Of a DNA stretch of 63,216 nucleotides, positions 10,540 to 43,960 are shown piece after piece. The first letter of the stretch is position 1. Each line of letters opens with the position of its first letter. The translations under genes and the position numbers were made by a program. The notes under the pieces are model-generated. The model had not been told where the DNA came from and ran no database searches. It saw only the letters and a list, made by a program, of their open reading frames with translations. This DNA comes from Bacteroidota bacterium (lineage in GTDB: Bacteria > Bacteroidota > Ignavibacteria > SZUA-365): contig JAMIQH010000153.1 in NCBI GenBank assembly GCA_035914695.1, positions 1 to 63,216 of the forward strand, written 5' to 3'.

Positions 10540-10540
10540 G

Positions 10541-25866: not shown

Positions 25867-26568
25867 TCAACCGCGCAACACTTTCTTGTATTTCAGGAAA
25901 TAGCGCTTGAGGATATTCACAAGCGGCCGGGCCAGGCCAAGGGGTTGCAACACCACCATGCTCGCATGAAAGATGATGCCTGAGAGTGTTCTCAGCGTGG
26001 ACTCCGCGGGTTTGGGTGCGGTATCAATGTGCACATACATAATGGTCCAGTAGCTACCCTTTATGATGTGTTTCTCGCCCCAGTTGTATCGATCGAAAAA
26101 GTTGCTCGTGATATAGGTTTGATGAATTTCCAGCGGATTGCCGTAGGTTTCCTCCTGGAAAATATCATGAAGTGGACAAATGATAATGATGTGTTTGAAG
26201 GTGCGATGACACTGCTGTATTACCGCGTGGATATCGGAGGGCTTCAAATGTTCCAGAACGTCGCCGAAGATTGCCACATCATACATCTGCGCGTTCTTGC
26301 GCACCCAGTCCTGAAGCAGCGCATGGTGCACTTCATCATACGGGCCTTCATTGCGGAGCATGTTGGCTGTGTTTTCCGAGCCCTCCACGGCCACGAGACG
26401 GACGTCGCTTTGAAGCAGCTCCCGTGCTATTCTCCCGTTTTTCCCGCCTCCGGCGCCAAAATCGACGATGCGAGCAGGCCGCAATGCCTCAAGTTGCTGA
26501 GCGAGAATGTAGTCGCAATACGACACACTGCTTCCGAATTGCTGTTCCACGGTATCCTGGTCTGACAT
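25867..26568 (-). CDS. class I SAM-dependent methyltransferase
   Basis: ORF 233 aa. IVDFGAGGGKNG (motif I) and VAIFGDVLEHLKP. Visibly lower GC than the surrounding core genes. Confidence 0.75.
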   Translation of the reverse strand: MSDQDTVEQQFGSSVSYCDYILAQQLEALRPARIVDFGAGGGKNGRIARELLQSDVRLVAVEGSENTANMLRNEGPYDEVHHALLQDWVRKNAQMYDVAIFGDVLEHLKPSDIHAVIQQCHRTFKHIIIICPLHDIFQEETYGNPLEIHQTYITSNFFDRYNWGEKHIIKGSYWTIMYVHIDTAPKPAESTLRTLSGIIFHASMVVLQPLGLARPLVNILKRYFLKYKKVLRG

Positions 26569-26704
26569 CGGCTGCTTTCTCCATGATGGGGGGACGTTTG
26601 AACCTGGCGGTCCCGATCGCCTTGGGCGGCTGTTGGATGGCGTGTTGCTTTCCCGCTGTCATCACCCTGGCCCGATTGCGATGCGGTGCATTGGTCCACG
26701 GGTA

Positions 26705-26847
26705 CTTGTCCGCATACTATTGGCGAATCGGGTAATATTGTGCGCAATATATCGCTTCCTTTGCAGGGGAGCAAACAGAGCATCAAGACATAGTTTCAAA
26801 ACCACAGATAGCACAGATATCACACAGATTAGCACAGATGGATCGTG
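26705..26847. repeat. 143-bp direct repeat, left copy (contains a CACAGAT module; copy R2)
   Basis: cttgtccgcatactattggcgaatcgggtaatattgtgcgcaatatatcgcttc...gtttcaaaaccacagatagcacagatatcacacagattagcacagatggatcgtg. Near-identical to 36120-36262. Confidence 0.9.
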
Positions 26848-26892
26848 GAAATCCACGATGATCCGATGAAGAAGCCACGAAGTGTCCTTGTG

Positions 26893-27324
26893 TTACGCCA
26901 CCGAGGTCGAGCCATAGCGCCGCAGCGCCTCTGTGGCCGCCAGAGAGATGAGCGCTTCGAGGACATGGACGTCGATGTCTGCGAGGCGCTTGAAGTAGAG
27001 GCAGGACTTGCTCATCTTGTGCTTTCCGAGCGTGGACAGGAGTTCCGCTTGTCCGGGATCGTCCACGCCGAGGTAGACCACGAGTTCCCTGCCGCGGATG
27101 GCGAAAGCCGCGAGTGGCGCCTCGCCCGAGTGTCCGCTCGCATATCTGTAGGTGTAGGAGCCGAAGCCCACGATGCTCGGTCCCCACATGTGCGGCTGTT
27201 GTCCCGTCACACGCTCGCATATCGTCATGATGGTTCTGCAATCCTCGATTTGCCCGGCGGTGCCTCTTGCCGCGAGGTACTCCTCGACACTCGCGCCGGT
27301 GGGTTGGGTTTTTGGAGTTGGCAT
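26893..27324 (-). CDS. DUF1801 (YdhG-like) domain protein
   Basis: ORF 143 aa. GASVEEYLAA...MWGPSIVGFGSYTYRYASGHSGEAPLAAFAIRGRELVVYL is the typical DUF1801 pattern. Confidence 0.75.
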   Translation of the reverse strand: MPTPKTQPTGASVEEYLAARGTAGQIEDCRTIMTICERVTGQQPHMWGPSIVGFGSYTYRYASGHSGEAPLAAFAIRGRELVVYLGVDDPGQAELLSTLGKHKMSKSCLYFKRLADIDVHVLEALISLAATEALRRYGSTSVA

Positions 27325-27384
27325 GGGGGCCTCTCTGAATTGGAATGCTGTGCTACAGAGCGCAGTATGCGTGTGAACGACAAC

Positions 27385-27530
27385 GTTTCAAAACCAGGGT
27401 GCGAACAATGTAGTTTCAAAACCACAGTGCGAACAATGTAGTTTCAAAACCACAGATAGCACAGATATCACACAGATTAGCACAGATGGATCGTGGAAGG
27501 GTGCGGGGAGCGGAGCGAATACCTGTCTCT
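27385..27530. repeat. dispersed intergenic repeat, family CACAGAT (copy R3), with internal 28-bp duplication
   Basis: gtttcaaaacc starts at 27385, 27413 and 27441. The last is followed by cacagatagcacagatatcacacagattagcacagatggatcgtggaagggtgcgggg, as in R1. Confidence 0.85.
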
Positions 27531-27561
27531 CTGTTGGGTTCGTTTTTGGGCGAATGATGCT

Positions 27562-30500
27562 TTACACCGCTCCGCCCACACCTTTGAATTTCTCCACGAA
27601 TGCGGTGATTTTCTGGAAGACGGTCTGCTTCGTGATCAAGTATTGCGGGTTCAGCGGGCTCATGCGGGGCAGGATGGCGTTGAGTTCGGTGCCGCTGTCG
27701 CTCGCGAATTCGCGTTTTAATGAGGCGGTGATATAGCGCCTGGCAGCTTCCGCATTCAGGTTCTCGGCGGTGATCAACTCTTGCGCTTCCCGCTGCTGTT
27801 CGGCCCGGGCAAAGGTGAAAAAGGCATCAATCACACTGGCCTTGTCGCCAATGTTATCGAGATCGGTCTGGTTGATGAAATCGACGAGCAGGCTTTCCTT
27901 GGCTCGGTTGCCAAGACTGGCGCGAATGACGCGTCGTACTTCGTCAACCAGCCCCGACTTGGTCCTGATGTTCTTGTTGTGCTCGAAGATCAGTTCCAAT
28001 ATGTAGTCGAGATTGATTTCCTGAGACTTCAGGAGGTCGACCTCGAATACCACGTCATCCCAGTCGATGCTGGATGTATCCTTGTCATCGGAGGATTTCT
28101 GGCGGCGCAGCCATTCGCGCACGTCGTTGTAGGTGGAGCGGTAATCCTGGATGATTCGTTCCGACGGTATCGTTATCGCCTGCAGTTCGGCAAGGTCTTC
28201 ATCGCTCAGATAATGCTGCGTCTTGAATGCCTCCACCGCCGCAGGGTCGTTCATGTCAACGCTTTGAAGTGCTTTCAGACTGGCAAATTCATCGAAATGC
28301 TGTAGCACATTCTCGATGCGTAAATATTCTCCGAAGAGCTTCACAAACGCCTTCTTGTCCGCTTCCTTCTCGATGGCGGTGGGATCGGGAAAGCGCTGCT
28401 CCAACTCCCGCACCACATCCATATAACCGCGCCGCGCTTCACCGGTCAGTACATCGGTAAAGCCGTCCATGTATTCCTTGTAGCTCTTCTCCAGCACCAC
28501 GTTCTTTGTGTTCCTGTCGCCAAACAATGTGATGGCGTCGATGGTGGCTTGCTCGAGGTCACGGAAGGTGACGATGTTGCCAAAGGTTTTCGTGGCGTCA
28601 AAAATGCGGTTGGTGCGCGAATATGCCTGCAGAAGGCCGTGGTAACGCAGGTTTTTGTCGACGAACAAGGTGTTCAGCGCCGGCGCATCAAAGCCGGTCA
28701 GGAACATGCCCACCACGATCAGCAGGTCGATTTCCTTGGCCTTCACCTGCTTGGCGAGATCACGGTAGTAATTCTGGAAGCCGTTGCTGTCCACGCTGAA
28801 ATTGGTTTTGAACAGCGTGTTGTAATCCGCTATGGCCGCGCTCAAGAACTCCTTGGCGCTGCTGTCCATGGCGGAGACTTCGAAACTTTCGTCCTGTATG
28901 TCGCCGACAGCATCCTGTTCCTCGTTCGCGGCAAACGAGAAGATGGTGGCTACCTTCAACGGCTTGTCGCTGCCCTTCTGCAATTCCCGGAAGGACTCGT
29001 AGTACAGCTTGGCGGCGTCGACGCTGCTGACCGCGAACATGGCATTGAACCCTTGATTACCAGCCTGGAGGCGGCGTGTTTTCTGTCGATAGTGTTTCAG
29101 GATGTACTGTGTGATTTCGCGTATGCGGTCGGGGTGCAACAGCGCCTGCTTGTTTTCCGCCGCGCTGAGCGTTTTCTCGTTGGACTCGCTCTCAATCGCC
29201 TTGAACTGTGGACGTACATCGTTGTAGTCCACCTTGAACTTCAGCACCTTCTCATCGCGTATGGCGTCGGTGATCACGTAGGAATGAAGTTCGTTGCCAA
29301 ACACGCTGGCTGTGGTTTCGGCGCCCAACGCGTTCTGCGGGAAAATGGGTGTACCGGTGAAGCCGAACTGATAGAACTTCTTGAACTTCTTTTTGAGGTT
29401 TCTCTGCGCTTCGCCAAACTGGCTGCGGTGACATTCATCAAAAATGAACACCACCTGCTTGCCGTAAATGGGCAGATCGCCTTCGCTCTTCATCAGGTTG
29501 TTGAGCTTCTGGATGGTGGTGACGATGATCTTGTTGTCGTCCTTGTCCAGATTGCGCTTGAGACCGGCGGTGCTGTCCGAACCATTGACGCTGTCCGGTG
29601 AGAATCGCTGGTATTCCTTCATGGTTTGGTAATCAAGATCCTTGCGGTCGACCACGAAAAACACTTTGTCGATGAAGTCCAGCTCGGTGGCCACACGCGC
29701 CGCCTTGAAGCTGGTCAGGGTTTTGCCCGAACCGGTGGTGTGCCAGATATAACCGCCGCTTTCCGTTTTGCTCCAGTTTTTCGTCTGCCATGCGCTGTTG
29801 ATTTTCCACAGAATGCGCTCGGTGGCGGCAATCTGATAGGGACGCATGACCAACAGGGTGTTGCTGACATCGAATACCGAATAGTGCAGCAGTACGCTGA
29901 GCAGCGTCCTTTTCTGGAAAAAGGTGGCGGTGAAGTCCTTCAGGTCCTTGATCAGCGAGTTATCCGATTTCGCCCAATTCATGGTGAAGTCGAAGCTGTT
30001 CTTGCCGCGCTGCGTGGTGTTGGCGAAATACCGACTGTCGGTGCCGTTGGAGATCACGAACAGTTGCAGATACTTGAACAGGGAATGCTCGCTGTTGAAG
30101 CTCTCCTTGCTGTAGCGATGCACCTGATTGAAGGCCTCACGAATCGCCACGCCGCGTTTTTTCAGTTCCACCTGCACAAGAGGCAGACCGTTGACAAGAA
30201 TCGTCACGTCGTAGCGATTGGCGTGGCTGCCCGTCTGCTCGAACTGCTTGATCACCTGCAGCCGGTTTCGGGCAATGTTCTTCTTGTCCAGCAGATAGAT
30301 GTTCTGTATATGGCCATCGTCAAAGACAAAGTCGTGAATGTAATCGTCGTGAATCTTGCGGGTTTTTTCCACGATGCCATCACTGGGCTTGTCCAGCCAG
30401 GTTTCCACAAAGCGCAGCCACTCGCCGTCGGAGAATTGCATCTTGTTCAGCGTCTGCAACGCGTTGCGCACATTGGCCAGCAACTTTTCCGGCGTGTTGA

Positions 30501-30660
30501 GGTCGGGCGCGTATTCGTAGCCCTGATTCTTCAAGTCCTGAATGAACTCCCGCTCCAGATCCGATTCGCTCTGGTAACGCTCGTTGGCTTTCCATTCCCT
30601 GACGTATTTGTCCAGGACAATGAAGTGTTTCGATTCGGCAATGGCCTTGTAGTCGCTCAT
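27562..30660 (-). CDS. hsdR: type I restriction endonuclease subunit R
   Basis: ORF 1032 aa. HTTGSGKT Walker A and [13 protein letters not shown] box. N-terminal nuclease-region and C-terminal sequences are typical of HsdR. Confidence 0.95.
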
Positions 30661-30760
30661 TCTTCGGGGTCCTTGCTTTGCAGCTCGTTTTTAGAGTCCG
30701 GTCCAAATCGGCTTCGATGCGTTGCTGCCTGTTGAACGTTTCACCTCAGTCAGCGGCGTT

Positions 30761-31111
30761 TCATGCAGTCGGCATTCGGCGGATTGAGCCGTAATCCAAC
30801 GGGATCACCGCGTCCAGGTTGTAGTACTTGACCTGCTGGGTCTGGGTGAGGCCTACCACGGCGCCGTGCTCAGTGCTTGTTTCCAAAATGGAAACAACCA
30901 CTTCTTCCACCAATTCGCCACTGTCGAAGATGTTCTTCAGATGCCTGGAAATGGCCGGGACGCCCACACCAAACAACTCCGCCATGCGCTTTTGGGTCAG
31001 CCAGATGCTCTCATTGCTGAGCAGGACTTCGACTTTGACTGCGCCGTTGGGCGCGGTGTGGAGCAGGAATTCGGTGCTTTGATCGCGTAATGTGATATTT
31101 GGTCGGGGCAT
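30761..31111 (-). pseudogene. rhuM-family (virulence protein RhuM-like) gene remnant, frameshifted and truncated
   Basis: MPRPNITLRDQSTEFLLHTAPNGAVKVEVLLSNESIWLTQKRMAELFGVGVPAISRHLKNIF...KYYNLDAVI matches the N-terminal third of RhuM-type proteins, which are usually about 330 aa. Near 30803 the expected ISVGYRLN continues in another frame (..VGLRLNP..) and stops. Only about 100 bp remain before hsdR. Confidence 0.65.
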
Positions 31112-31305
31112 AGTTCGATCCCTCAATTTTGAGTATCCAGGGATTGTTTCCCCATAGGTGTGGTACTGGTAGTTGCTAGATTCAACTGATTGGTGACATG
31201 AACTATTTCACTCTCGTCTTGCTTCAGATTGTCTCAAATATCCATGTTTCTGGGTAGGAATGATCGTCAATGCACATTGACTCAAATTGCGGGAGTATGG
31301 CGTAA

Positions 31306-32538
31306 TCATCCAGTTATTACTTCCGGTTGCCTGAAATGATAGGTCTTGATCAAATGGTCTACCAATTCGCTTAGTCTAGCTTTGTCATTGTCCTCGATTT
31401 CAGCCATTTCTTCGCCTGCATGGGCTGAGTGACTGGATAGGTTTAGGAGTCTGTTTCCAAATGGGTCAGGGTTCCCATTGCTGGTTTGTGGAAGAAGAGC
31501 CGACCAGTTGTTGTAGCCTAGGAACGTAGCCATCTTCTCCAAAATGTTTCGTGTGAAATTAAAATGGTACTTCCTGATTTGCCCATTATTAAGTGCAACT
31601 TGGAGTTCGGATAAGAGAAACAGGTGGTACGAGAATGGCGAGTCGGTTGGCTGTGTTGCCAGATTAAACAGACCGTCTTCATTTTTTTCTAATCGATATT
31701 TCTGAAAAGCTTTTTTTGGGCTATATGTCTTCGTCCGTGTGCCATCCTTCTGTGTTTTGTAGGCCGGGTTGCTAAACTCGTTGCAGAGGATATTGTAAAA
31801 AAGCGGGCTGTGTGTTGTGATTACAAAATTAAGCTTGGAATTGCTCGACTTAACCAGCGTCGCCAGGTCGATGGCTAGGTCAATTAAATGATTGTCGTCG
31901 AGCGAACTAACGGGGTCGTCAATAAACACGTATTCTAGAAGATCAAAGTCGTTGCTTCCGTGTTCATTCTTGTCGGATTCCTCAAGAACAGACACCACCT
32001 CTTGAATAAGTGTAAAAAAAATGCTCCATATAAAACTCCTCTCCTCGCTTTTAGATACTTTTAAATTGCCTGTTCGTTCAGTGCCAGTGTCAAGAGAGAA
32101 AATTACTTCCGGGTAGGTTTTTTCACCTGTCCTCTTCGTACCTACAACTACATCTTTCTCTTGAAATCGTGCAGATAGTTTGTCGTTTGTATAACGCTGA
32201 AATGTGTTAACGATATCTATTTCGCCGCGTACACGCAAAATCCAGTCAGTGAATGAATTCGGTTGGATTTTTAATTTTGGCTCGATGTCTTGCTCCAAGT
32301 CGTTATCCCAGTAGAACAAGTCTTCGGTAAATGCGTTGTAATAGAGGATGATGTTGCGTGACGACTGGGGAAGATCGGCTGCTTCATCGCCTTCTCCACT
32401 ATCGGCTTTGGAGGCTATCAGTCGCTTGAACTCTCGTGAGAGACGAGTTTTTCCCACGCCATTGAAGGCGTAGATTATCTGCACTTTCTTGTTGGCATCT
32501 TTTAGCTGTTGTGCGATTTCCGGTAGCGTCTTGCCCAT
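31306..32538 (-). CDS. AAA_13-type ABC-like ATPase, PrrC-like anticodon nuclease candidate
   Basis: ORF 410 aa. Walker A AFNGVGKT, signature-like VSKSEER, Walker B/D-loop YVFIDDPVSSLD and H-loop ITTHS. The C-terminal region has RNILE (RxxxE) and SSHS about 36 residues later. The gene sits between hsdS and hsdR as prrC does in E. coli and starts 1 nt after the hsdS stop. It is the most AT-rich gene in the window. Confidence 0.65.
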   Translation of the reverse strand: MGKTLPEIAQQLKDANKKVQIIYAFNGVGKTRLSREFKRLIASKADSGEGDEAADLPQSSRNIILYYNAFTEDLFYWDNDLEQDIEPKLKIQPNSFTDWILRVRGEIDIVNTFQRYTNDKLSARFQEKDVVVGTKRTGEKTYPEVIFSLDTGTERTGNLKVSKSEERSFIWSIFFTLIQEVVSVLEESDKNEHGSNDFDLLEYVFIDDPVSSLDDNHLIDLAIDLATLVKSSNSKLNFVITTHSPLFYNILCNEFSNPAYKTQKDGTRTKTYSPKKAFQKYRLEKNEDGLFNLATQPTDSPFSYHLFLLSELQVALNNGQIRKYHFNFTRNILEKMATFLGYNNWSALLPQTSNGNPDPFGNRLLNLSSHSAHAGEEMAEIEDNDKARLSELVDHLIKTYHFRQPEVITG

Positions 32539-32539
32539 G

Positions 32540-33787
32540 TTATGTCGTCTCCTCTTCAGGTTTTGGGAAGTTGAACAGCATATCGCGGTAATACTCGTAT
32601 TGCTTTTTGCGCAGTGCGATTTCGCGGGGCAAGCCCTCGGTGAGGGAGTTGGTCAGAGCGTCGAACGTGTCGAGTATGGCGACGATGCGGGCTTGTTCGG
32701 CGAGGGATTTCTGAGGGTCATAGGCATATGGAATCGGGAGCTTGAAGCTCTTTATGATGCTTGAGTTGAGGTCGCCTCTGGGACCCTGTCCTAGTGACTT
32801 AATGTTTTCATAATTAAAACTCACCCAATGAAAAACATAGCGAGATAACGCCTTGGCGCTGTCTACTTCCAGGCAGCCACAGTGCTGATTGGTTGTTAAA
32901 GGAATTTTATTGATCGCTGACCTGCCTGCCGTGGCGCCAGAGATCGCAATTATTACGCAATTCGCAGGAATCCACTTTGCTGCCGACTGCTCCAGGGCTG
33001 CCTGAGTTATTTTTACTTCAGTTCTCTCGATATCGGAAAACTTGACCTCTTGTGTTCTTAGCCATGGAATATCGCCTCCTTCATAGTACTTCGGCTCTCC
33101 GGCTGTAGGGGTTCCGCCTGAATGCCATTTTTTTGTAACATCCCCCAGCGTTTTCCAGGCTACATCTCCTAATTCAAAACTCAACAACCGGTCGCGATAG
33201 TAATTGTATTGTTTTTTACGAGCGGTCAGCTCGGCGGTCAGCTCGGCGGTCAGCTCGGCGGTCAGCTCGGTAAAGGCGTCAAGAATGCGGACGATTTCGG
33301 CCTGGATTTCGAGGGATTTTTTGGGGTTCTCGGGGCAGGGGATGGGGATTCCAAACTTTTCGGTATCAGGGATTGCAATTTGCGGCATTTGCATCTTGCC
33401 GCCAATACTCTGGAAATGGGGTTCGTACAGTTTTAGAAAATGGTAAACATACTTGATATGGATAGCCTCGTTGCTTGAATGGTACGACCACATTTCATTC
33501 TTGTGTGAGAACGGTATGTCGCAATATTCAAATTCAATTACGCCACGAGATTTAACAATAATCGAAGCTTCGCAATTTATATCCTTGGCTGGTATGTCGT
33601 CGAAATCAACAAAGGCGACGGTTTTACCCCCCGCGAAGATTTTTACCGGAGCGCCATCTTTATGAAGCTCTTTCATCTGACCTGCGGTGATTTTTGTGCC
33701 TTTGGTTCGAACAAGCATCTCACCGAGTGGCTTCCATTGAACCTCGACCCCGTCCAACAGCTTCGCCAGAAAAGGAAGTTGACTCAC
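32540..33787 (-). CDS. hsdS: type I restriction-modification specificity subunit S (type IC-like)
   Basis: ORF 415 aa. Two TRDs separated by the central conserved region LDAFTELTAELTAELTAELTARKKQYNYYRDRLLSF. The C-terminal conserved region is LDTFDALTNSLTEGLPREIALRKKQYEYYRDMLFNF. GTG start lies 2 nt after the fic stop. Confidence 0.9.
   Translation of the reverse strand: MSQLPFLAKLLDGVEVQWKPLGEMLVRTKGTKITAGQMKELHKDGAPVKIFAGGKTVAFVDFDDIPAKDINCEASIIVKSRGVIEFEYCDIPFSHKNEMWSYHSSNEAIHIKYVYHFLKLYEPHFQSIGGKMQMPQIAIPDTEKFGIPIPCPENPKKSLEIQAEIVRILDAFTELTAELTAELTAELTARKKQYNYYRDRLLSFELGDVAWKTLGDVTKKWHSGGTPTAGEPKYYEGGDIPWLRTQEVKFSDIERTEVKITQAALEQSAAKWIPANCVIIAISGATAGRSAINKIPLTTNQHCGCLEVDSAKALSRYVFHWVSFNYENIKSLGQGPRGDLNSSIIKSFKLPIPYAYDPQKSLAEQARIVAILDTFDALTNSLTEGLPREIALRKKQYEYYRDMLFNFPKPEEETT
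33222..33269. repeat. 4 perfect tandem copies of the 12-bp unit gcggtcagctcg inside hsdS (encodes the TAEL/ELTA repeat)
   Basis: Directly visible at 33222-33233, 33234-33245, 33246-33257 and 33258-33269. Translated on the minus strand this gives ELTAELTAELTAELTA. Confidence 0.95.
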
Positions 33788-33789
33788 GG

Positions 33790-34395
33790 TTACAACTCCT
33801 CGGTCTTGAATTCGCTGTAGCCTTCGTAGAAATAACTCACGTCGATGCCTTTCATGAACAGGGCGCGGTCGTGGATGCGGTCGGTGAGGGCTTGCTTGAG
33901 CAGGAATTTGATTTCCAGGTCTTTCACCGGACTGCGCCGCATGGCGGAAAGATATTCCTCTTTATCGACGTGATTCCAGTCCACCACCTGCCTGAGTTCC
34001 TTTTTCAGCATGCAATCCAGCCAGATGCGGGTGGCCCGTCCGTTGCCTTCGCGGAAAGGATGGGCGACATTCATTTCCACATATTTTTCCACGATTTGCT
34101 CGAAGTTGCCTTGCGGCATGGCGTCGATATGTTTGAGCGAAGCGTGCAGATACATGACCGGGGCGAAGCGGAAATCACCTTTGGAGATATTCACGTCGCG
34201 GACAATTCCGGCGAAGTGGTAAATCTCGCCAAAAAGATAGGCATGGATGAACGCCAGCCCGGAAAATGTACCCACGTCCACCTTGTGGATGTCGCCCGAG
34301 TCGAAAAGCTGTCTGGCTTTTTGCTTGCTGATTCTTTCCTCGGCCTTGGCCAGCGCGATCTGCTCCGTGATGTTGAGCTTGTTTTCCGGAATCAT
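33790..34395 (-). CDS. fic: Fic-domain protein (AMP-transferase type), class III-like with C-terminal inhibitory motif
   Basis: ORF 201 aa. [12 protein letters not shown] is the canonical Fic motif HxFx(D/E)GNGRxxR. The C-terminal SYFYEG fits the inhibitory (S/T)xxxE(G/N) motif. Its ATG overlaps the hsdM stop (ATGA). Confidence 0.9.
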
Positions 34396-35942
34396 GTGGA
34401 CGCTCCTTCAATCTCGGCTACGATGGCGTCGATTTCCGCGCGCAGCTTGTCGATGTTGGCGACGGTGGTTTTCAGTTCGGCATTCAGTTGGGCAATGTCC
34501 ACGGTCTCACGGGTATCCCGGGCCTCCACATAGCTGCTCACCGACAGATTGTAGTCGTTGGCGGCGATGGCCTCGAAAGGAATGGATTGAGCAAAGTGAT
34601 CCACGTTCGCCTTGCTGTCGAACACGGCGAGGATGCGTTCGATGTGCTCGTCCAGCAGCACATTATTGTTGGTTTCCTTCTTGAACAGACCGCTGGCGTC
34701 GATGAACTGCGTGGTGGTGTCGCTTTTATGTTTGGACAGCACAAGGATATTCACTGCGATGGTGGTGCCATAAAACAGATTGGACGCCAGGGAAATCACC
34801 GTTTCGATGTAGTTGTTGTCGATCAGATATTGGCGGATTTTCTGCTCGGCGCCTCCACGGTAGAAAATGCCGGGGAAGCAGACGATGGCCGCGCGGCCTT
34901 TGCCGGAAAGATAGTGGAGCGCATGCAGCACGAAGGCGAAATCGGCTTTGGATTTGGGCGCGAGCACACCCGCCGGGGCGAAGCGTTCGTCGTTGATCAG
35001 CGTCGGGTCGTCGCTGCCTATCCACTTCACCGAGTAGGGCGGATTGGACACGATGGCGTCGAAGGGTTTGTCCTCGGCGAAATGCGGCTCCGTCAGCGTG
35101 TTGCCCAACTGGATGTTGAATTTGTCGTAGTTGATGTTGTGCAAGAACATGTTCATCCGCGCCAGGTTGTAGGTGGTGTGGTTGATTTCTTGCCCGAAGA
35201 AGCCGTCATCAATCAGATGGTCGTCAAAATGCTTTTTGGCCTGCAGCAGCAAGGAGCCCGAGCCGCAGGCGGGGTCGTAAATCTTGTTGACACCGCTTTG
35301 CGTGTGCATGGCGAGTCGTGCGATCAGCTTGGACACATGCTGCGGCGTGAAGAATTCGCCGCCCGATTTGCCCGCGTTGGCGGCATAGTTGGAGATGAGG
35401 AACTCGTAGGCGTCGCCGAACAGATCGATGTGGCTCGACCCGAAGTCGCCGAAGTCCAGTTCGGCCACGCCTTTGAGCACGGCGGCCAGGCGGGTGTTCT
35501 TGTCCTTGACGGTATTGCCCAGGCGGTTGCTGGTGGTATCGAAGTCGGCGAACAGGCCTTTGATGTCCTGCTCCGACGGGTAGCCGTTGGCGGAAGCTTC
35601 GATGGCGGCGAAAATCGTTGCCAGGTCGGTGTTCAAGCGTTCGTTGCTGTTGGCGTTGGCAGCCACTCTGGCAAAGTGCTGGCTGGGATAGATGAAATAG
35701 CCCTTGGTCTTGATGGCATCATCTTTGATCTCCGGCGTGATGACATTGTCGGCCATCTGAGCATAGCGGATGTTTTCGTCACCGCATTCGAAATACTCCG
35801 CGAAGTTTTCGCTGATGAAGCGATAGAACAGCGCACCGAGCACGTATTGCTTGAAATCCCAGCCATCCACCGCACCGCGGACATCGTTGGCGATTTGCCA
35901 GATCCGGCGTTGCAATTCGGCTCGTTGTTGGCTGCTGGTCAC
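34392..35942 (-). CDS. hsdM: type I restriction-modification DNA methyltransferase subunit M
   Basis: ORF 34392..35972. [10 protein letters not shown] (motif I) and SNPPYS (motif IV) are present. Likely start is GTG at 35942 ([23 protein letters not shown]), with GAGGAGAA upstream; the TTG at 35972 is less likely. Confidence 0.95.
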
Positions 35943-36119
35943 GTGGTTTTCTCCTCGGGACGTGGGTACCAAAGGTACCCGGTTTTTCTATGAAATCAGA
36001 ACTCCCTCATCTCGCACGGGATTGATCCATCAACGGACGCTGGGTGTACGCCTACGCGCAGCAGGTTGCCGGGGTGAAGAGTTCCCACTGTCGCAGCTCC
36101 GCGCCTTGTCTCACTTCCG

Positions 36120-36262
36120 CTTGTCCGCATACTATTGGCGAATCGGGTAATATTGTGCGCAATATATCGCTTCGGCTGCAGGGGTGCAAGCAGAGTATCA
36201 AGATATAGTTTCAAAACCACAGATAGCACAGATATCACACAGATTAGCACAGATGGATCGTG
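36120..36262. repeat. 143-bp direct repeat, right copy (copy R4)
   Basis: Near-identical to 26705-26847, with a handful of substitutions, mostly in the segment cttc[ct]ttt/ggctgcagggg[at]gcaa[ag]cagag[ct]atcaaga[ct]at. Confidence 0.9.
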
Positions 36263-36403
36263 CAAGGCGGCGAGGTTCGGAGTGAATGGATAACGCTCGG
36301 GGGAGAGATCGCACGCACGCTGTCGACGATGTAGCGTCTTATGCATCCTTGCGCCTCTGCGTTATGCGCCCTTGCGTTATGCGCCCTTGCGTTATGCGAC
36401 CTA
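36263..36403. repeat. tail of repeat R4, including a 15-bp tandem repeat (gcgttatgcgccctt, about 3 copies)
   Basis: gatcgcacgcacgctgtcgacgatgtagcgtcttatgcatccttgcgcc parallels R1 (25795-25850). It is followed by gcgttatgcgcccttgcgttatgcgcccttgcgttatgcga at 36359-36400. A related pair, cccttgcgttacgcgcccttgcgttacg, is at 53460-53487. Confidence 0.85.
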
Positions 36404-36474
36404 GCGCTCTGCCTCCAAGGTCGAGTCGGAGCGCCGCATTGTATTCGTACAGGCAGGTTTCCGGCATGCCGCTG

Positions 36475-37233
36475 CTACCGCTGCCGACGGTCGAGCTGGT
36501 AGCGGCCGGCGGGGTCGATGCGGAGGGTGGGGATGCGGTGGGTGCGTTCGAAGCTGTCGTAGCCGGCTTTGAGCTGTGTCCAGAAATCGGCGAGGGTGGG
36601 CTGATCGAGGACGGTGTTGAGCAGACCGGCGAAACGGGCTTCGGTCATGCGTAGGGGAAAAATGTGCACGGGTATGCGTCGCTGGCCGGCGGCGCGGGCG
36701 CGCGCGGCGAGCAGGTAGATTTCGCGGATGGCGTCGTCCTCCACGGAGATGCAGCCGATGCTGACGCAGCGTCCGTGCATGTAAATGTCACCGCCGGGAT
36801 TGCCGCCGCGCGTGTGTATGCGGTCGGCGGCATTGGGATAATCGAGTCCGAGCGAAAGCAGGTAACTGCTCGTGGGATTGAAACGCGTGATGTTGTAGAA
36901 GCCCTCCGGCACTTGCATGTCGCCCTGCGCGCGCTTCGGTCCGAGGGTGCCGGAGTAACCGCAGAAGTCGTAGTCGCGGAACAAGGCCATGGTGTCGGCC
37001 GATCGTACCCAGAGTTCCACGCTGCGCTCGTCCTTGAACACGCGCAGATAGATGGCGCGGGGCGGAAAAACGAGTCCGCGCTCGCGAAAAGCGCGGCGCA
37101 GGGAGGTGTCCTTGTGATCGTGCGCGTATTTTACCCGGGTGAATCCGAGTTGCTGCCGGTAGAAGTCCTGTGCATGGCTTGCGGTGGTGGAGAGGAGGAG
37201 TATGCCCAGGAGGGCGGTGATGATCGGGCGCAT
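36475..37233 (-). CDS. L,D-transpeptidase catalytic-domain family protein
   Basis: ORF 252 aa. Signal peptide MRPIITALLGILLLSTTASHAQ. IYMHGRCVSIGCISVED resembles the YkuD-type HG...GC active site. Confidence 0.7.
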   Translation of the reverse strand: MRPIITALLGILLLSTTASHAQDFYRQQLGFTRVKYAHDHKDTSLRRAFRERGLVFPPRAIYLRVFKDERSVELWVRSADTMALFRDYDFCGYSGTLGPKRAQGDMQVPEGFYNITRFNPTSSYLLSLGLDYPNAADRIHTRGGNPGGDIYMHGRCVSIGCISVEDDAIREIYLLAARARAAGQRRIPVHIFPLRMTEARFAGLLNTVLDQPTLADFWTQLKAGYDSFERTHRIPTLRIDPAGRYQLDRRQR

Positions 37234-37352: not shown

Positions 37353-40300
37353 TCATCCGGTAACGGTATCGGTTTGTTCGGTCACATCCACGACGGTGTT
37401 GTCGGTGAGGAACCAGAGCAGGGTGCGCGCGGGCTGTCCGCTGAGGTCGCGCCAGGCACGCGCGTAGAGGCGCACCTGCGGGGCGTAATGCGCGGCGTAG
37501 GCGTCGAGGGCCTCGCCGGCGGCATCGGTTTTGTAGTCCACGATGGTCCAGCCGCGCTCGTCGCGGAAGACGAGGTCGATGTCGCCGCGCAGCACGCCGG
37601 GTAACGCCTCGTCCGGCCACGGCTGCGCGAAGGGGATTTCGCAGTGCCGCTGCTCCGCCGCCATGATGCGCTGCCACAGCGGATGCGCGCGCGCGACGCG
37701 CACAAGCTCCAGCAACGCGGGTGCTTCCTCTTCTCCAATGCCCTCGCCGGCGAGCAGCGCCACGGCGATGCTCGCGGGTTCGAGCGCGGGATCGGTGGCC
37801 AGCAACTGCATCATGCGATGCACGGCGGTGCCCCAGCGGGCGCCCCTGCCGCGCGTGGCGCTGCGCGGCGCATCCGGTCCTTTTGCCATAACACTTGCGC
37901 GCAAGCGCTGCCAGGAGGGACGCAGCGCATCCTCGCGATGCCGCTCCAACATGCGGAGCATGTCGTCGGGCGTGTCGGGCAGCGCCGCGCCGCTCGCAGG
38001 GGTGATCGCGCCATCCGCGGTGGTATTGGTTGTGGCGGCTTCAACGGCGCGGGGCAGCGGACGGGCGGCGAAGAGCGCGACTTCGTCGTGTGTGAAATTG
38101 CTCGCGCCCTTGTCATGCCCGAGCAGCAGCAGCGAATTCCCGGCGCGCGTGGCCGCGACATAACGCAGGCGCTCACGTTCGGCTTTGAGATACCGCGACT
38201 CGCTGTCCACGAGTGCTTGCCACTCGCCGGGTATCGCGATGATGCTGCCCGCGTAGGGATTGCCTGTGCTTTTCACAATGGCGCAGTAGCCCGTCCCGAC
38301 ATCGCCGCGGCGGACAATGATGGCTGGCTCGCGCGCTTTCGGGGGAGCCATGTCGCAGAGGACGACGAGCGGCGCCTCGAGGCCTTTGGCGCCGTGCATG
38401 GTCATGAGCCGCACGGCCTGTGTTTCCTCCCGCAGTTGCACCGAGAGTTTCGACGTCTGCCGCATGCGCTCGAGGGTGCGCATGATGTCGTACAGGGCCA
38501 TGCCGCGTGCCGAGGCCCGGCGCAAAAAACCGAGCAGCGTAGCGAAGCCGCCCGCGCGCGCGTCGCCGCGATCCCGCGCCAGCAACCAGGGCGGCATGGC
38601 CCAGCTATCCACCATGGTCGAGGCCACGGTGCCGGGAGGCATGGAGCGCACGAGTCGCATGGAGCTTTTGATGAAATCCAGGGCCTGACGCAGGCGCGGG
38701 TCCATGCCTGGTTTGAACGCCGCGGTGAGCTTGAAGCGCCCGCCCGATTGCCGCCAACGCAGCAGCGCGGCATCGTCCACGCCGCACCAGGCGCTGCGGA
38801 GGAAGGCCACCATCGCCACCTCGTCCTCGGGATCGCCGAGCACGCGCAGGAGCAGCAGGAGAAGGTCGACTTCCTCGCTGTCCAGCATGGGGAGTCCGCC
38901 CGCTGTGCTGTAGGGGATGTCGGCGGCGTCGAGTGCGCGTGCCACGTCCTGCAATTGCTTGATCGTGCGTCCGAGTATGAGTACGTCGCCGTAGCGCAGG
39001 GGGCGTTCGATGGGCGCGCCGGCCGCTGCGGTTTCGGCGATGCGCATGCCCGCATTCACGGCTTCGCGCAGCCAGGCGGCGAGAGCGGCATTGGCATCGG
39101 GTGCGGAGGCCTCGGCGGGAAGCACGTACACGCCCGCGAGCGCGCCCGCTTCCTCGCGCTCGGGCAGCAGCGCTTCGTAGGCGGGTTGCATGTCGCTGCC
39201 GGGCGCGGGGAAGAGCGGAGCGAAGACGCGGTTCACCGCATCGCAGATGGACGGCAGCGAACGGAAGTTGCGCGTGAGCCGCAGCACCTCGCCTCCCGAG
39301 CGCAGCATGATGGCGCGCAGCTCGTTGTACACGCTGATATCGGCGCGGCGGAAGCGATAAATGGCCTGCTTGGGATCGCCCACGACGAAAAGCGCTCCGG
39401 GGCGGAGGCGCGCTTCCCGCCACGAGGCGCCGTCGTCCACATCGCCACAGAGATAGAGCAGAATTTCCGCTTGCAACGGGTCGGTGTCCTGGAACTCATC
39501 CACCAGCACATGGCGCCAACGGCTTGCGAGCGCGTCGCGTACGTCGCGGTGGTCGCGCAGCAGATTGCGCGCGCGCAGGAGCAGATCGGCATTGTCCAGC
39601 GCATTGCGCCGCTGCTTCTCCTCGGCGTAGCGCTTTCGTGCTTCGATGATCAGAGGCAGAAGCCGCGCGTAGTCGTATTGACGCAAGGCCTCGATAGCGG
39701 GCTGCACGTGCGTCTCGTTCACTTCGCTGAGCAGATGATCGCGGAACTCTAACGCCACGTTGGCATCCGTCCAGCGCTTGAGCGTCACGTTTCGGGAGGT
39801 CTTGGTGCGGAACAGCGCCACAATGCGCCGATCCCTCGCCGGCGAGGGCTCCGCTTCCAGCAAGCTCGCGGCTCGCGCCAGATTTTTTTGCGCATCGTCG
39901 CGCTGTTTCGGATCGGGATGGAGATACGCGGCGGAGGAATCGACCAATGTGCGGATTGCGTCGATAGCCGCGGTGAGATCCGGCGCGGTTGCGCTGCCCG
40001 GCGGGAAATCCACCTCCGGGTAGTCGAAGAGCGTCATGCAATTCGCGCGGAGATCCTCGACGGGCAGTTCCAGCTCCTCCAAGGTGGCGAGCAGTTCAGG
40101 ATGTTCAATATCCAGTGTGGCGGTGAATCGCGTCCAGGCCTCGGCGCGCAGGGCGTCGGCATCGGCATCCTCCAACAGGAGGAAGTCCGGTGCGACACCC
40201 GTCTGCACGGGGTATTCGCGCAGCATGGCGGAGCAGAAGGCATGAATGGTTTCAATGAACAGCGCATCGATATTGTCCACCGCCAGCCGCAGGCGTGCGC

Positions 40301-40565
40301 GCGTCGCTTCGTTGTCGGCGCTGCGCGCTGCGCGTTCGAGGCGGTTTTGCATGCGCAGACGCAATTCCAATGTTGCCTTGCGCGTGAAGGTGACGGCGGC
40401 GATGCCATGCACGTCCGTGATGCCATCGCTCAGCAGCGAGAGCATGCGTTCGGTGAGCGCGGTGGTTTTGCCGCTGCCCGCTGCGGCCTCGACGAAGAGG
40501 GTGGCGCGGACATCGGTGCGTATGCGCTCGCGCGCGATGGCGTCGAGATCCCTGTTATTCTCCAT
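37353..40565 (-). CDS. UvrD/Rep-type helicase with C-terminal PD-(D/E)XK nuclease (AddA/RecB-like)
   Basis: ORF 37353..40772. Start taken at MENNRDLDAIARE (ATG 40565). AAAGSGKTTAL Walker A and VDEFQDT are present. The C-terminal GDIDLVFRDERGWTIVDYKTD is a nuclease motif. Confidence 0.8.
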   Translation of the reverse strand: MENNRDLDAIARERIRTDVRATLFVEAAAGSGKTTALTERMLSLLSDGITDVHGIAAVTFTRKATLELRLRMQNRLERAARSADNEATRARLRLAVDNIDALFIETIHAFCSAMLREYPVQTGVAPDFLLLEDADADALRAEAWTRFTATLDIEHPELLATLEELELPVEDLRANCMTLFDYPEVDFPPGSATAPDLTAAIDAIRTLVDSSAAYLHPDPKQRDDAQKNLARAASLLEAEPSPARDRRIVALFRTKTSRNVTLKRWTDANVALEFRDHLLSEVNETHVQPAIEALRQYDYARLLPLIIEARKRYAEEKQRRNALDNADLLLRARNLLRDHRDVRDALASRWRHVLVDEFQDTDPLQAEILLYLCGDVDDGASWREARLRPGALFVVGDPKQAIYRFRRADISVYNELRAIMLRSGGEVLRLTRNFRSLPSICDAVNRVFAPLFPAPGSDMQPAYEALLPEREEAGALAGVYVLPAEASAPDANAALAAWLREAVNAGMRIAETAAAGAPIERPLRYGDVLILGRTIKQLQDVARALDAADIPYSTAGGLPMLDSEEVDLLLLLLRVLGDPEDEVAMVAFLRSAWCGVDDAALLRWRQSGGRFKLTAAFKPGMDPRLRQALDFIKSSMRLVRSMPPGTVASTMVDSWAMPPWLLARDRGDARAGGFATLLGFLRRASARGMALYDIMRTLERMRQTSKLSVQLREETQAVRLMTMHGAKGLEAPLVVLCDMAPPKAREPAIIVRRGDVGTGYCAIVKSTGNPYAGSIIAIPGEWQALVDSESRYLKAERERLRYVAATRAGNSLLLLGHDKGASNFTHDEVALFAARPLPRAVEAATTNTTADGAITPASGAALPDTPDDMLRMLERHREDALRPSWQRLRASVMAKGPDAPRSATRGRGARWGTAVHRMMQLLATDPALEPASIAVALLAGEGIGEEEAPALLELVRVARAHPLWQRIMAAEQRHCEIPFAQPWPDEALPGVLRGDIDLVFRDERGWTIVDYKTDAAGEALDAYAAHYAPQVRLYARAWRDLSGQPARTLLWFLTDNTVVDVTEQTDTVTG

Positions 40566-43482
40566 GCTGCAATTCCCTCCATGCGTCAAGCATGTTGTTG
40601 TCCGCATTGTCCAATTTTTCCAAACTCTCCTCGCAGACGCGCCGCGGCGGACCGCAGAGTTCTCGGAATTCGCAATAGCCGCAAGCGCCGGCGTCGATGG
40701 CATGGGGGAACACGCCGTCGCGCCAGGCGCGCAGCAGGTGGCCGACGGTTTCGGCGAGGCCCGGATCGTCAACGCTGTGCGGCACTTCGACGCCTTGCTC
40801 CTTGTCGGAGATGTGGAGGTAGCTGAAGCGCAGATCGTGCGCCTCGCTGCCGGGCAGCATGGCGCGCAGGGCGGCGGCGTAGAGGCCGGGTTGCAGCGGC
40901 AGTCCGTCTTTCAGCACGCGCGCCTTGTTGGATTTCATGGAGCCGGTTTTGTAATCGACAATGCGAATGTTTCCCTCCGCATTCATGTCCACGCGATCCA
41001 CACGGCCGCGGAGCAGCAGTGTGCCCTCGGGAGTGGGGAAGCGCGGCTGCTGCTGCGGACGCCGCAGCGGTGGCTGTGGCAGCTCGTCGCCATCGATGCG
41101 CAATTCCACGCCGAGGATGCGCAGCTTGGGCTGTTGCCGTTCGTGGCGCAGGAAAATGGAGGCGATACTCCGTAATTTGCCGCGCGCGACTCGCAGCGCG
41201 CTTTCATTCGGCGCTGGATGCTCGTCGATGTAATCGTGCAGCACATCCTCGATGACCGCGTGGGCTTCGGACTCCCACTGCTCCACCGGCCAATGCGTGG
41301 CGGAGCGACGCAGGATGAAGTGCTGAAACACCGCGTGCGCGCAACTGCCGAGGTCGGCGGGATTCATCCATTGCGTGGCGTCGAATTCGGAGGAGGGAGG
41401 CGGCTGCACGCGGAGGAGCTTTTGCAGAAACGCTTTGTACGGGCAGCGCGAGAAGCTCTCCAGCGTGGAAGGCGACAGCGCGAAGCTGCGATCGTCTTCG
41501 CCCATGTGCGGCCCCACGAACCCATCGAAGGCGGTGAAGTTCCGCGACGCGCGCGCCGCGATGGCCTCCTGTCCCGCGTGTTGCAGCGGGAAGTGGGCGA
41601 GCAACGCGGCCATGGCCTCCGCGCGCGGCAGCGGGGCGCCGCGCAGGAGAAAATATTCGGACAAGGACAGCGGCCATTCCGCAGGCACATCGCCTTCGGC
41701 GCGGGGCAGCGCGCGTTCGAGGTCGGAGTAGTCGGCGTCGGGTTGCTCGCGCACGCCGCGGAACAGGGCGAGCACTTCGCGCGACGGAGCGAGGGGATGA
41801 AGTTTGTCGGCTTCCATGCGCGCCCAGGAGACGGTGAGTGTGCCGCGCACGCGCCGCAGCAAGGCGCGGAAATCCTCGCTGCGCCGCCGCACGCGCGCAT
41901 GCGCATCCGGCAGCGCGACAGCGAGCCGACGTGCGAGTTCCGCGCGGTCCTCGTCGAGCAGCACGGGATTGATCTCGGCCTTGCCCGGCATGCTGTCAAC
42001 ATCCATGCCCAGCACGTACACCTGTTCGCGTCCCGACCAGCCCGCGTGCCGGAGGTCGCACACGTACAGATGTCCGGGCAGGGGAGAGCTGCTTTGCTCG
42101 GCCACGCCCCCGACTTCCTTGAGCACCACCGGCATGGACGCGGCGCCAATGCTGTCGGTGAGCATGGCGAGAATGGCGGCGGGTTCGCCGAGCAGCTCGG
42201 GTCCGCGCGCGAGGTTGTGGAGCAAGTCCTGCAACTGCGCCACTGCCTGCGGCTCGCCGGGGAAGGCGGGGCGGCAGAGATCGCGCAGTAGCGTTGCGGT
42301 GTTTTCCACGAGCGTGTGCAACGAGAGGAAGCCATCGTCGCGGCGCTCGGGGAGCAGGGCGGCGAGCGCGGCGATGAATTCGCGGCAGGCGGGCCAGGCG
42401 GGATTGCCTGCGCCTTCGCCACGCGCGAGATAGCGGTCGACACGTTCGACAGTGCGCGACGGATCGGGACCGATTGTCGCCCGGCGGAGCAGGTCGGCGG
42501 CGGGCAGGCGGTTGGCCGACACGCCATTGACGGAGAAGGGTTCGAAGTCGGGAATGCCTTCGTACAGCAGGCGGACGAGGTAATGCGCGTCGCCCCGTTC
42601 GATCCATTGCAGGAAGCGCAGCACGGTGCGAGCGGCTTTGCTGTAATGTAGAGGAATGCCTTCGGCAAAGGTGACGGGAAGGTCGAATTCCTGACACAGT
42701 TCCCAGATCAACGCGCGTTGATAGCTGTCGCAGTACACGATTTCCGCCTGGTCGAGCGGGACACGGCGATGCAGGATATCGCGCAGCGCCGCGCGGGCCT
42801 CGTGTTCGGGGGTCAATGCGGGACGGAATTCCACGCGTGTCGGCGCCGTGGCCCCGTTATCGATGACGGTGAGCGCGTCCGGAGCCAGGGCGTCGAGAAA
42901 GGCGCGTTCGAGTGGCGGGAGCGCATCGAATTCCTCCCGAGCGATCAGCAGTCGCGGTCGGGCGGTGTCGGGCAAGTCCCGGGCTTGCTCGATGGCGCGT
43001 CGCAGCAGCAGGGCGGGAGGCAGCATGCCGCGCTTCCGGGACTCGGCATGCACCTGTTCCCACACCGCGTGCACATCGCGCAGGCGCGGATGCTCCGATT
43101 CGGGCTCGGGCAGGAGTTGCCCGGGCAGCACACCCGCCTGTTCGAGATCGCGGATCGCGCGTTCGAAACAGCGTTGCATGCCCGGTTGGGTGGCCAACGC
43201 GGCGAAGGCGCCGGGTGGACGCAGGCGGTCGATACATGCGGCCGCGACGAAGGATGGCGCGAAGGACTCGCTGCGTTCGCCGGATTGCAGCAGGTCGACG
43301 GCGAGCAGCTCGCGTGCCAGGGAGAGCGGCGTGCCGCGGCGCAGTCCGAGCCAGGCCGTGCCCGAGCGCGCGAGCGCGTCGCGCTGCAATTCGGCGATGA
43401 GCGCCGTGGATGCGACGAGAACGGTGTCGACCGGCGGTCGTTGCTGCTGAAGAATCTTGGAACAGGATGCGGTGAAACTCAT
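40555..43482 (-). CDS. AddB-like PD-(D/E)XK nuclease subunit with Fe-S cysteine cluster
   Basis: ORF 40555..43896. Start taken at MSFTASCSKILQQQ (ATG 43482). RGRVDRVDMNAEGNIRIVDYKTG is the nuclease motif. FSRCPYKAF plus CGYCEFRELCG supply four Cys as in AddB. It overlaps the addA-like start by 11 nt. Confidence 0.75.
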   Translation of the reverse strand: MSFTASCSKILQQQRPPVDTVLVASTALIAELQRDALARSGTAWLGLRRGTPLSLARELLAVDLLQSGERSESFAPSFVAAACIDRLRPPGAFAALATQPGMQRCFERAIRDLEQAGVLPGQLLPEPESEHPRLRDVHAVWEQVHAESRKRGMLPPALLLRRAIEQARDLPDTARPRLLIAREEFDALPPLERAFLDALAPDALTVIDNGATAPTRVEFRPALTPEHEARAALRDILHRRVPLDQAEIVYCDSYQRALIWELCQEFDLPVTFAEGIPLHYSKAARTVLRFLQWIERGDAHYLVRLLYEGIPDFEPFSVNGVSANRLPAADLLRRATIGPDPSRTVERVDRYLARGEGAGNPAWPACREFIAALAALLPERRDDGFLSLHTLVENTATLLRDLCRPAFPGEPQAVAQLQDLLHNLARGPELLGEPAAILAMLTDSIGAASMPVVLKEVGGVAEQSSSPLPGHLYVCDLRHAGWSGREQVYVLGMDVDSMPGKAEINPVLLDEDRAELARRLAVALPDAHARVRRRSEDFRALLRRVRGTLTVSWARMEADKLHPLAPSREVLALFRGVREQPDADYSDLERALPRAEGDVPAEWPLSLSEYFLLRGAPLPRAEAMAALLAHFPLQHAGQEAIAARASRNFTAFDGFVGPHMGEDDRSFALSPSTLESFSRCPYKAFLQKLLRVQPPPSSEFDATQWMNPADLGSCAHAVFQHFILRRSATHWPVEQWESEAHAVIEDVLHDYIDEHPAPNESALRVARGKLRSIASIFLRHERQQPKLRILGVELRIDGDELPQPPLRRPQQQPRFPTPEGTLLLRGRVDRVDMNAEGNIRIVDYKTGSMKSNKARVLKDGLPLQPGLYAAALRAMLPGSEAHDLRFSYLHISDKEQGVEVPHSVDDPGLAETVGHLLRAWRDGVFPHAIDAGACGYCEFRELCGPPRRVCEESLEKLDNADNNMLDAWRELQHGE

Positions 43483-43547
43483 GGCGTTTCCCTTGTGCTG
43501 GGATAGTCTCAAGGTACTATTTCGCGTGGTATTCGCCGAATGCGCTG

Positions 43548-43960
43548 CTTGAAGAGATCGAGCGGAATACATATAAAGAGAGCGCGGAGGGCGCCGAGGG
43601 CGCAGAGGATGGGTTGAGGTCGCTGACCGCTCGAATCCTGGCGACTGGCTGAGTGCGTGATACATTTGAAGAGATGAAAGAGAGCGGAGAGAGCGGAGAG
43701 GAATTGTTGAAGGCGCATCACGCTTGAAATCCGTGCGCCCCGCCGCAATCGGGTCAAAGCAAGGGCGCAGGGACGCCGGCGGCGGTAATCGGTTCAACAC
43801 AACGGCGCAGGGTCGCAGGCCTGAGATCTCCTCTGTGTACTCAGTGTTGGCGAAGCCCTCAGGGTACTCGGTGTTCGCGCAGCGCTCCGGGTTCACGCGC
43901 GTGCTTCCAATTCCTCCTTACCCTCATCTCCTCATTACTCTCTCCTCGAATGGTTTCTCC
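43548..43960. repeat. composite intergenic repeat, second locus of the 19887-20275 family
   Basis: ggctgagtgcgtgatacatttgaagagatgaaagagagcggagagagcggagaggaattgttga at 43647-43710. ggaggatgggttgaggtcgctgaccgctcgaatcctg at 43604-43640. ccgccgcaatcgggtcaaagcaagggcgcagggacgc and ttcctccttaccct also recur, all colinear with the first locus. Confidence 0.85.

Follow-up and report, generated by a model that had tools for sequence, protein, structure and literature searches.

We found that a perfect 12-bp tandem array inside hsdS, carried by an uncultured, high-GC bacterium, is very probably a length-variable ruler of a type IC (EcoR124-family) specificity subunit, in which the gain or loss of whole units would give one lineage two restriction-modification (R-M) specificities. 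The array holds four units in the window (the whole 63,216-nucleotide stretch of DNA that we analyzed) and three units in two contigs that are otherwise nearly identical to it. Below we consider the array itself, the protein that contains it, its variation in this lineage and among relatives, and several other ways in which the same observations might be read.

On the plus strand, positions 33222-33269 read gcggtcagctcg four times with 0 mismatches, and Tandem Repeats Finder delimited the array as 33222-33270, with a period of 12, 4.1 copies, 100% matches, and a score of 98. A perfect 48-bp tandem array in 63 kb cannot be attributed to chance. Read on the coding (minus) strand, the array is GAGCTGACCGCC three times and then GAGCTGACCGCT, and its product, ...IVRILDAF-TELTAELTAELTAELTA-RKKQYNYYRD..., contains TELTAELTAELTAELTA in the form T(ELTA)x4, as residues 173-189 of the 415-aa HsdS. 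The first-pass annotation had reported four perfect 12-bp repeats in the central region of this gene, and our direct reading, the Tandem Repeats Finder result, and the translation all agree with its coordinates, unit, and translated product. We dismissed an 80-aa open reading frame on the plus strand (33204-33446) as an antisense frame of the conserved gene.

We compared ELTA units within and between arrays at 44 related loci. Units of the same array differed by a mean of 0.28 nt and were identical in 74% of comparisons, while units from different loci differed by a mean of 1.49 nt and were identical in 13%. Because units within an array are far closer to one another than units from different loci, we reject the null expectation of a conserved peptide with freely drifting synonymous sites, and we take the homogenization of units within arrays to indicate that units have been gained and lost repeatedly. 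All four units were perfect at 9 of the 26 loci with four units, including those of Limnobacter, Syntrophus, and Snodgrassella. Judged from these loci, perfect unit identity is the norm for the type IC hsdS family and is not peculiar to the locus in the window.

Several lines of evidence place the gene in the EcoR124 family (Table 1), as the first-pass annotation had proposed. HsdS matched the EcoR124 HsdS chain 7bst_A over residues 2-412 (phmmer, E=9e-85); the N-terminal, central, and C-terminal conserved regions of the two proteins are near-identical, while their two recognition domains have diverged. The layout of the subunit, with two target-recognition domains (TRD1 and TRD2) plus central and C-terminal conserved helices, is that of a type IC HsdS. 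The profiles matched by HsdR and HsdM (EcoR124_C, TIGR00348, and TIGR00497) are likewise of the EcoR124 type. HsdR, HsdM, and HsdS are all full length, and their genes share a strand with two neighbors in the order hsdM, fic, hsdS, PrrC-like gene, hsdR. The hsdS gene begins with a GTG start codon 2 nt past the fic stop. The fic gene is context and lies outside the ruler, and the PrrC-like gene is context only.

Table 1. Features of the R-M locus and of the repeat array, in window coordinates
Feature	Position	Strand	Basis or detail
hsdM, type I N6-adenine methyltransferase, 516-aa call	34392..35942	-	TIGR00497 3.3e-193; 516-aa gene call on L094
fic, 201 aa, class-III-type, between hsdM and hsdS	33790..34395	-	NF046029 Fic 7.5e-92
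hsdS, type IC specificity subunit, 415 aa	32540..33787	-	Pfam Methylase_S 3.3e-35; phmmer 7bst_A
D1 (central conserved) helix, residues 155-203, holds the repeat	33179..33325	-	DSSP on AlphaFold2 model
Four perfect 12-bp units	33222..33270	-	Encode (ELTA)x4 in the 17-residue linker T173-A189
D2 (C-terminal conserved) helix, residues 358-404, antiparallel partner of D1	32576..32716	-	DSSP on AlphaFold2 model
PrrC-like AAA_13 gene directly after hsdS	31306..32538	-	PF13166 1.5e-14
hsdR, 1032 aa, EcoR124-type C-terminal domain	27562..30660	-	PF12008 EcoR124_C 6.9e-70; TIGR00348 6.7e-208

We modeled HsdS with AlphaFold2 from 45 homologues (mean pLDDT of 86.6), and DSSP assigned two long helices to the model, at residues 155-203 and 358-404. 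The first of these contains residues 173-189, the ones encoded by the repeat. The closest fold in the PDB was again 7bst_A, from an entry titled "EcoR124I-Ocr." Given these helices and this fold match, we assign the repeat to helix D1, part of the coiled coil that spaces the recognition domains. The 12-bp units are in frame and encode a 4-residue repeat in D1, with the ILDxF motif on one side and RKKQY on the other; the TAEL repeat of EcoR124I and EcoR124II has been described at this site (PMC3874165), and the equivalence between the two repeats that had been suggested from the sequence therefore stands.

The number of units requires more care. EcoR124I, as represented by 7bst_A, carries TALTAELTAELNM, or 13 residues, between ILDKF and RKKQY, versus 17 residues in the window. 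The passages of a review that deal with these enzymes (PMC3874165) give the 12-bp unit as present twice in EcoR124I (GAA N6 RTCG) and three times in EcoR124II (GAA N7 RTCG), assign three TAEL each to EcoDXXI and EcoPrrI, and call three TAEL "the optimum number." The first-pass annotation had set two or three repeats in EcoR124 against four here, but these are unlike counts. An EcoR124II-type gene from Providencia (L027) encodes TALTAELTAELTAELNM, which also spans 17 residues, and its first and last units have diverged, leaving about three perfect DNA copies. The same holds for EcoR124-type genes more broadly (L027 and L009), in which the first (TAL) and last (NM) units are diverged, whereas in the window all four are perfect at the DNA level. 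In the window, the flanking units (TAL.., ..NM in their diverged EcoR124 form) have kept a perfect sequence, and for this reason the total helix length here equals that of EcoR124II. In its encoded linker length, then, the window allele has 4 residues more than EcoR124I and is in the three-TAEL state of EcoR124II, EcoDXXI, and EcoPrrI; its four DNA units represent the known long state with every unit still perfect, and not a step beyond known states. The D2 segment from ILDKF to RQKQY was 17 residues long in every relative in which our search pattern found it. D1 and D2 are thus equal in length in the 17-residue state, which fits the three-TAEL optimum in the review's own passages. We also noticed that 7bst chain A is named "EcoR124II specificity protein" even though its sequence includes two TAEL units and the title of the entry gives EcoR124I, a name that can mislead anyone who relates spacer length to repeat number.

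By searching for exact copies of the Fic protein, we found three other contigs (L094, L095, and L096), the last of which stops short of the array. L094 (JGI 3300010429, 7077 bp) matches positions 29461-36549 of the window at 99.80% identity, with 2 mismatches and one 12-bp gap that lies inside the array. One of the mismatches is in hsdM and the other in hsdR, and hsdS is identical apart from the lost unit, with three units left. L095 (ENA ERZ795055, 1613 bp, assembled with SPAdes at 2.3x coverage) has three units as well, and the DNA of both contigs is otherwise 99.0-99.8% identical to the window. Natural alleles of this gene therefore differ by unit number, with L094 separated from the window by one 12-bp unit and 2 SNPs over 7.1 kb, and the copy number that had been predicted to vary does so. 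The lineage is known from three sequences only, and its three- and four-unit alleles come from different assemblies. A gapped-pattern scan of JGI and ENA metagenome contigs for one to six units between the flanks of this lineage returned only the known ERZ795055 contig, and exact look-ups of the window HsdS, the L094 HsdS, and the L094 HsdM returned no record. Within hsdM, near the contig end of L095 (L095:27-33, window ~34583), the sequence departs from that of the window by a 1-bp indel and one mismatch, which most probably reflect an error in sequencing or assembly.

Three units are carried by the two near-identical contigs and by almost every close relative, so that the four-unit allele of the window is most simply a recent one-unit duplication, and the direction of change was probably from three to four. 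A recent expansion had been proposed earlier on the strength of the perfect identity of the units. The expansion is plausible in light of these contigs and relatives, but the identity of the units is no special feature of this array, being the family norm.

It could be argued that there is no switch in this lineage at all, that a 17-residue D1 is a fixed structural feature with the preferred helix length, and that the difference between three and four units is an assembly artefact. The 17 residues do equal the invariant length of the D2 segment and correspond to the number of TAEL that the review's passages call optimal, and L095 has a coverage of only 2.3x. Yet exactly three in-frame units were recovered in each of two assemblies that differ in sample and in pipeline (JGI; ENA SPAdes), and an array of 36-48 bp fits within one short read and within k-mers of at least 55. 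Moreover, relatives with the same recognition domains display one, two, three, or four units, and the homogenization of units within arrays requires ongoing gain and loss. We therefore consider a fixed length combined with an artefact to be very unlikely.

The relatives also show how the ruler is graduated. Among 120 database proteins, the linker was 13 aa long in 102, 17 aa in 12, 9 aa in five, and 5 aa in one, and at 70 genomic loci from many phyla it was 13 aa in 41, 17 aa in 26, and 5 aa in three, with none at 9 aa. Across both sets, the linker was restricted to 5, 9, 13, or 17 residues, a discrete series of one to four units. Where the window's pair of recognition domains recurs (TRD1 and TRD2, each about 73-88% identical), the linker is 13 aa long in E. 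coli, Klebsiella, and Morganella, 9 aa in another E. coli protein (P0034), and 5 aa in a Chitinophagaceae protein (P0066). Within the genus, only one relative (G002) has a type IC hsdS, which is 48% identical, has three units, and carries different recognition domains; it is too distant to inform on variation between strains.

The TRD1 and TRD2 combination, at about 79% identity, is present on Klebsiella plasmids of ~107-112 kb, in E. coli, and in Morganella (P0013, P0019, and H1-H6). The Klebsiella plasmids (about 79%) are the closest named relatives and come without a recognition sequence in the data examined. Other relatives share TRD1 alone (P0043 and P0070) or TRD2 alone (P0057, P0059, and P0084), a pattern typical of type I systems, whose specificity domains are commonly shuffled as modules.

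Arrays of five units, or linkers longer than 17 residues, were absent from the 70 loci and the 120 proteins, and IMG/VR contained 17 stretches of four units or longer, of which 0 had five. This raises the somewhat doubtful, although not implausible, idea that the family has a hard ceiling, in which D1 may be shortened in 4-residue steps (17, 13, 9, and 5) and never extended beyond the 17-residue D2, such that four DNA units would be the maximum and the lineage studied here would toggle between the top two rungs. If such a ceiling were real, each pair of recognition domains could generate at most four specificities, and a fifth unit should be inactive.

A more dynamic alternative is that the array undergoes reversible phase variation at high frequency, as a "phasevarion," with clonal mixtures of two to five units and global shifts in methylation and expression. 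The single indel in L094, set against two SNPs in 7 kb, suggests a mutation rate for the array far above that of single bases, the units are perfectly identical, and Atack et al. have brought up such a possibility for in-frame repeats that adjoin TAEL (PMC7383803). However, four units of 12 bp make a short array compared with classic contingency loci, in which units of 1-7 bp are repeated many times. The assembly from which the window comes contains a single copy of this stretch and no second allele of the array, and the five-unit state was missing from about 190 relatives as well as from IMG/VR. Given this balance, we regard high-frequency phase variation as unlikely, and we favor instead the gain or loss of whole units in a spacer ruler.

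In such a ruler, each 12-bp unit adds 4 residues, roughly a full helical turn, to D1, which pairs with D2 in the antiparallel coiled coil that keeps the two target-recognition domains apart. The four-unit allele (17 residues) would then recognize a target with an N7-type gap, by analogy with EcoR124II, EcoDXXI, and EcoPrrI, while the three-unit allele (13 residues, the EcoR124I length) is predicted to recognize the same half-sites with a gap 1 bp shorter, N6-type by the same analogy. With N7 spacing, the methylated adenines are 8 nt apart. Whole in-frame units would presumably be gained and lost via replication slippage or unequal crossing-over between units, two routes that our data do not separate. 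We infer the change of 1 bp per unit from EcoR124I and EcoR124II and from engineered EcoR124/EcoDXXI hybrids, in which, according to the relevant passages of the review, one unit more or less changes the gap by 1 bp (PMC3874165), and from NgoAV, in which the number of LEAT repeats tracks N6 and N7 motifs in PacBio data (PMC6789123). Switching within a clone we likewise infer from EcoR124 and NgoAV.

Changes in unit number might also act as an on/off or attenuation device, with off-optimum lengths weakening or inactivating the methyltransferase and no retargeting of it. One N. gonorrhoeae strain with intact hsdM and hsdS and a single LEAT repeat was found to leave the expected motif unmethylated (PMC6789123), and how the coiled coil accommodates a register shift is described as unresolved in the review's discussion of the repeat (PMC3874165). 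Even so, the two lengths present in this lineage, 13 and 17 residues, are those that the same discussion treats as proven to be active and differently specific in EcoR124I and EcoR124II and in the EcoR124/EcoDXXI hybrids, and they are by far the commonest natural states. An on/off role for the difference between our alleles consequently seems very unlikely. The best account of this difference remains a change in spacer length.

The prototype for such behavior is the type IC pair EcoR124I/EcoR124II (EcoR124/3) of plasmid R124, reportedly described by Price et al. in 1987 and 1989 and covered in the review (PMC3874165). The window resembles this system in the architecture and conserved regions of HsdS, in the 12-bp in-frame repeat at the same place in D1, and in having a natural pair of alleles one unit apart, with the window at the EcoR124II length and L094 and L095 at the EcoR124I length. 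It differs from it in its recognition domains (the fold alignment gives an overall identity of about 38% with the chain of EcoR124I), in an operon that adds fic and a prrC-like gene, and in its host, an uncultured high-GC bacterium, whereas the prototype resides on an enteric plasmid. A second point of comparison is EcoprrI, encoded at the prr locus of E. coli CT196, a type IC system with an embedded PrrC and the target CCA N7 RTGC. EcoprrI is of the same type and has three TAEL, equivalent to the 17-residue state, and the passages of the review that mention it cite no copy-number variant (PMC3874165). A prrC-type gene directly follows hsdS in both loci, although the window has an extra fic between hsdM and hsdS. 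The third comparison is with NgoAV of Neisseria gonorrhoeae, a type IC system reportedly described by Adamczyk-Poplawska in 2003. Like the window lineage, NgoAV varies in the number of a 4-residue repeat (LEAT/EATL) in the central helix of its HsdS, in this case from strain to strain (PMC6789123). NgoAV also switches through a poly-G frameshift that truncates HsdS, while no homopolymer switch is evident in the window.

The ruler mechanism is therefore already known; it has been textbook material since Price et al. 1989 and is also documented in Neisseria, and for this reason our results open no new question. They do reproduce the EcoR124I/EcoR124II relationship in an uncultured, high-GC environmental bacterium, as opposed to an enteric plasmid or Neisseria, and they add a natural three/four-unit pair from a non-enteric environmental lineage together with a linker found only at 5, 9, 13, and 17 residues, where 17 (the D2 length) is the apparent ceiling. 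They also suggest a simple rule for annotation, which is to count the residues from ILDxF to RKKQY (5, 9, 13, or 17), and not the perfect DNA copies, when assigning a gene to the EcoR124I- or EcoR124II-length state.

The surroundings of the locus bear on how this lineage came to possess it. The R-M island (window 26000-36000) has a GC content of 45-56%, compared to 60-67% in its flanks, where we found an addA/addB-like helicase-nuclease (37353-43896) and a TonB-dependent receptor (7693-10740). Because its GC content is lower than that of the flanks, the R-M locus is probably a horizontally acquired island, and the ruler would appear to be still active on this island, which also carries Fic and PrrC. 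We considered an origin in Neisseria, prompted by the match of Fic to the NmFic family, and rejected it: the DUS GCCGTCTGAA had 0 hits in the window, and both the GC content and the gene context were a misfit.

Other repeats occur in and around the island. A 15-bp tandem unit, TGCGCCCTTGCGTTA, is present in 3.8 copies (90% matches) in non-coding DNA upstream of hsdM, at 36350-36406, and does not differ in the near-identical contig L094. A further 12-bp unit, TTCAGTTCGGCA, occurs twice (91% matches) at 34471-34494, in the part of hsdM that codes for the C-terminal end, and is probably trivial. In a BLAST search with L094, we also found that the island is bracketed by a 143-bp direct repeat, whose two copies (26705-26847 and 36120-36262) are 95% identical.
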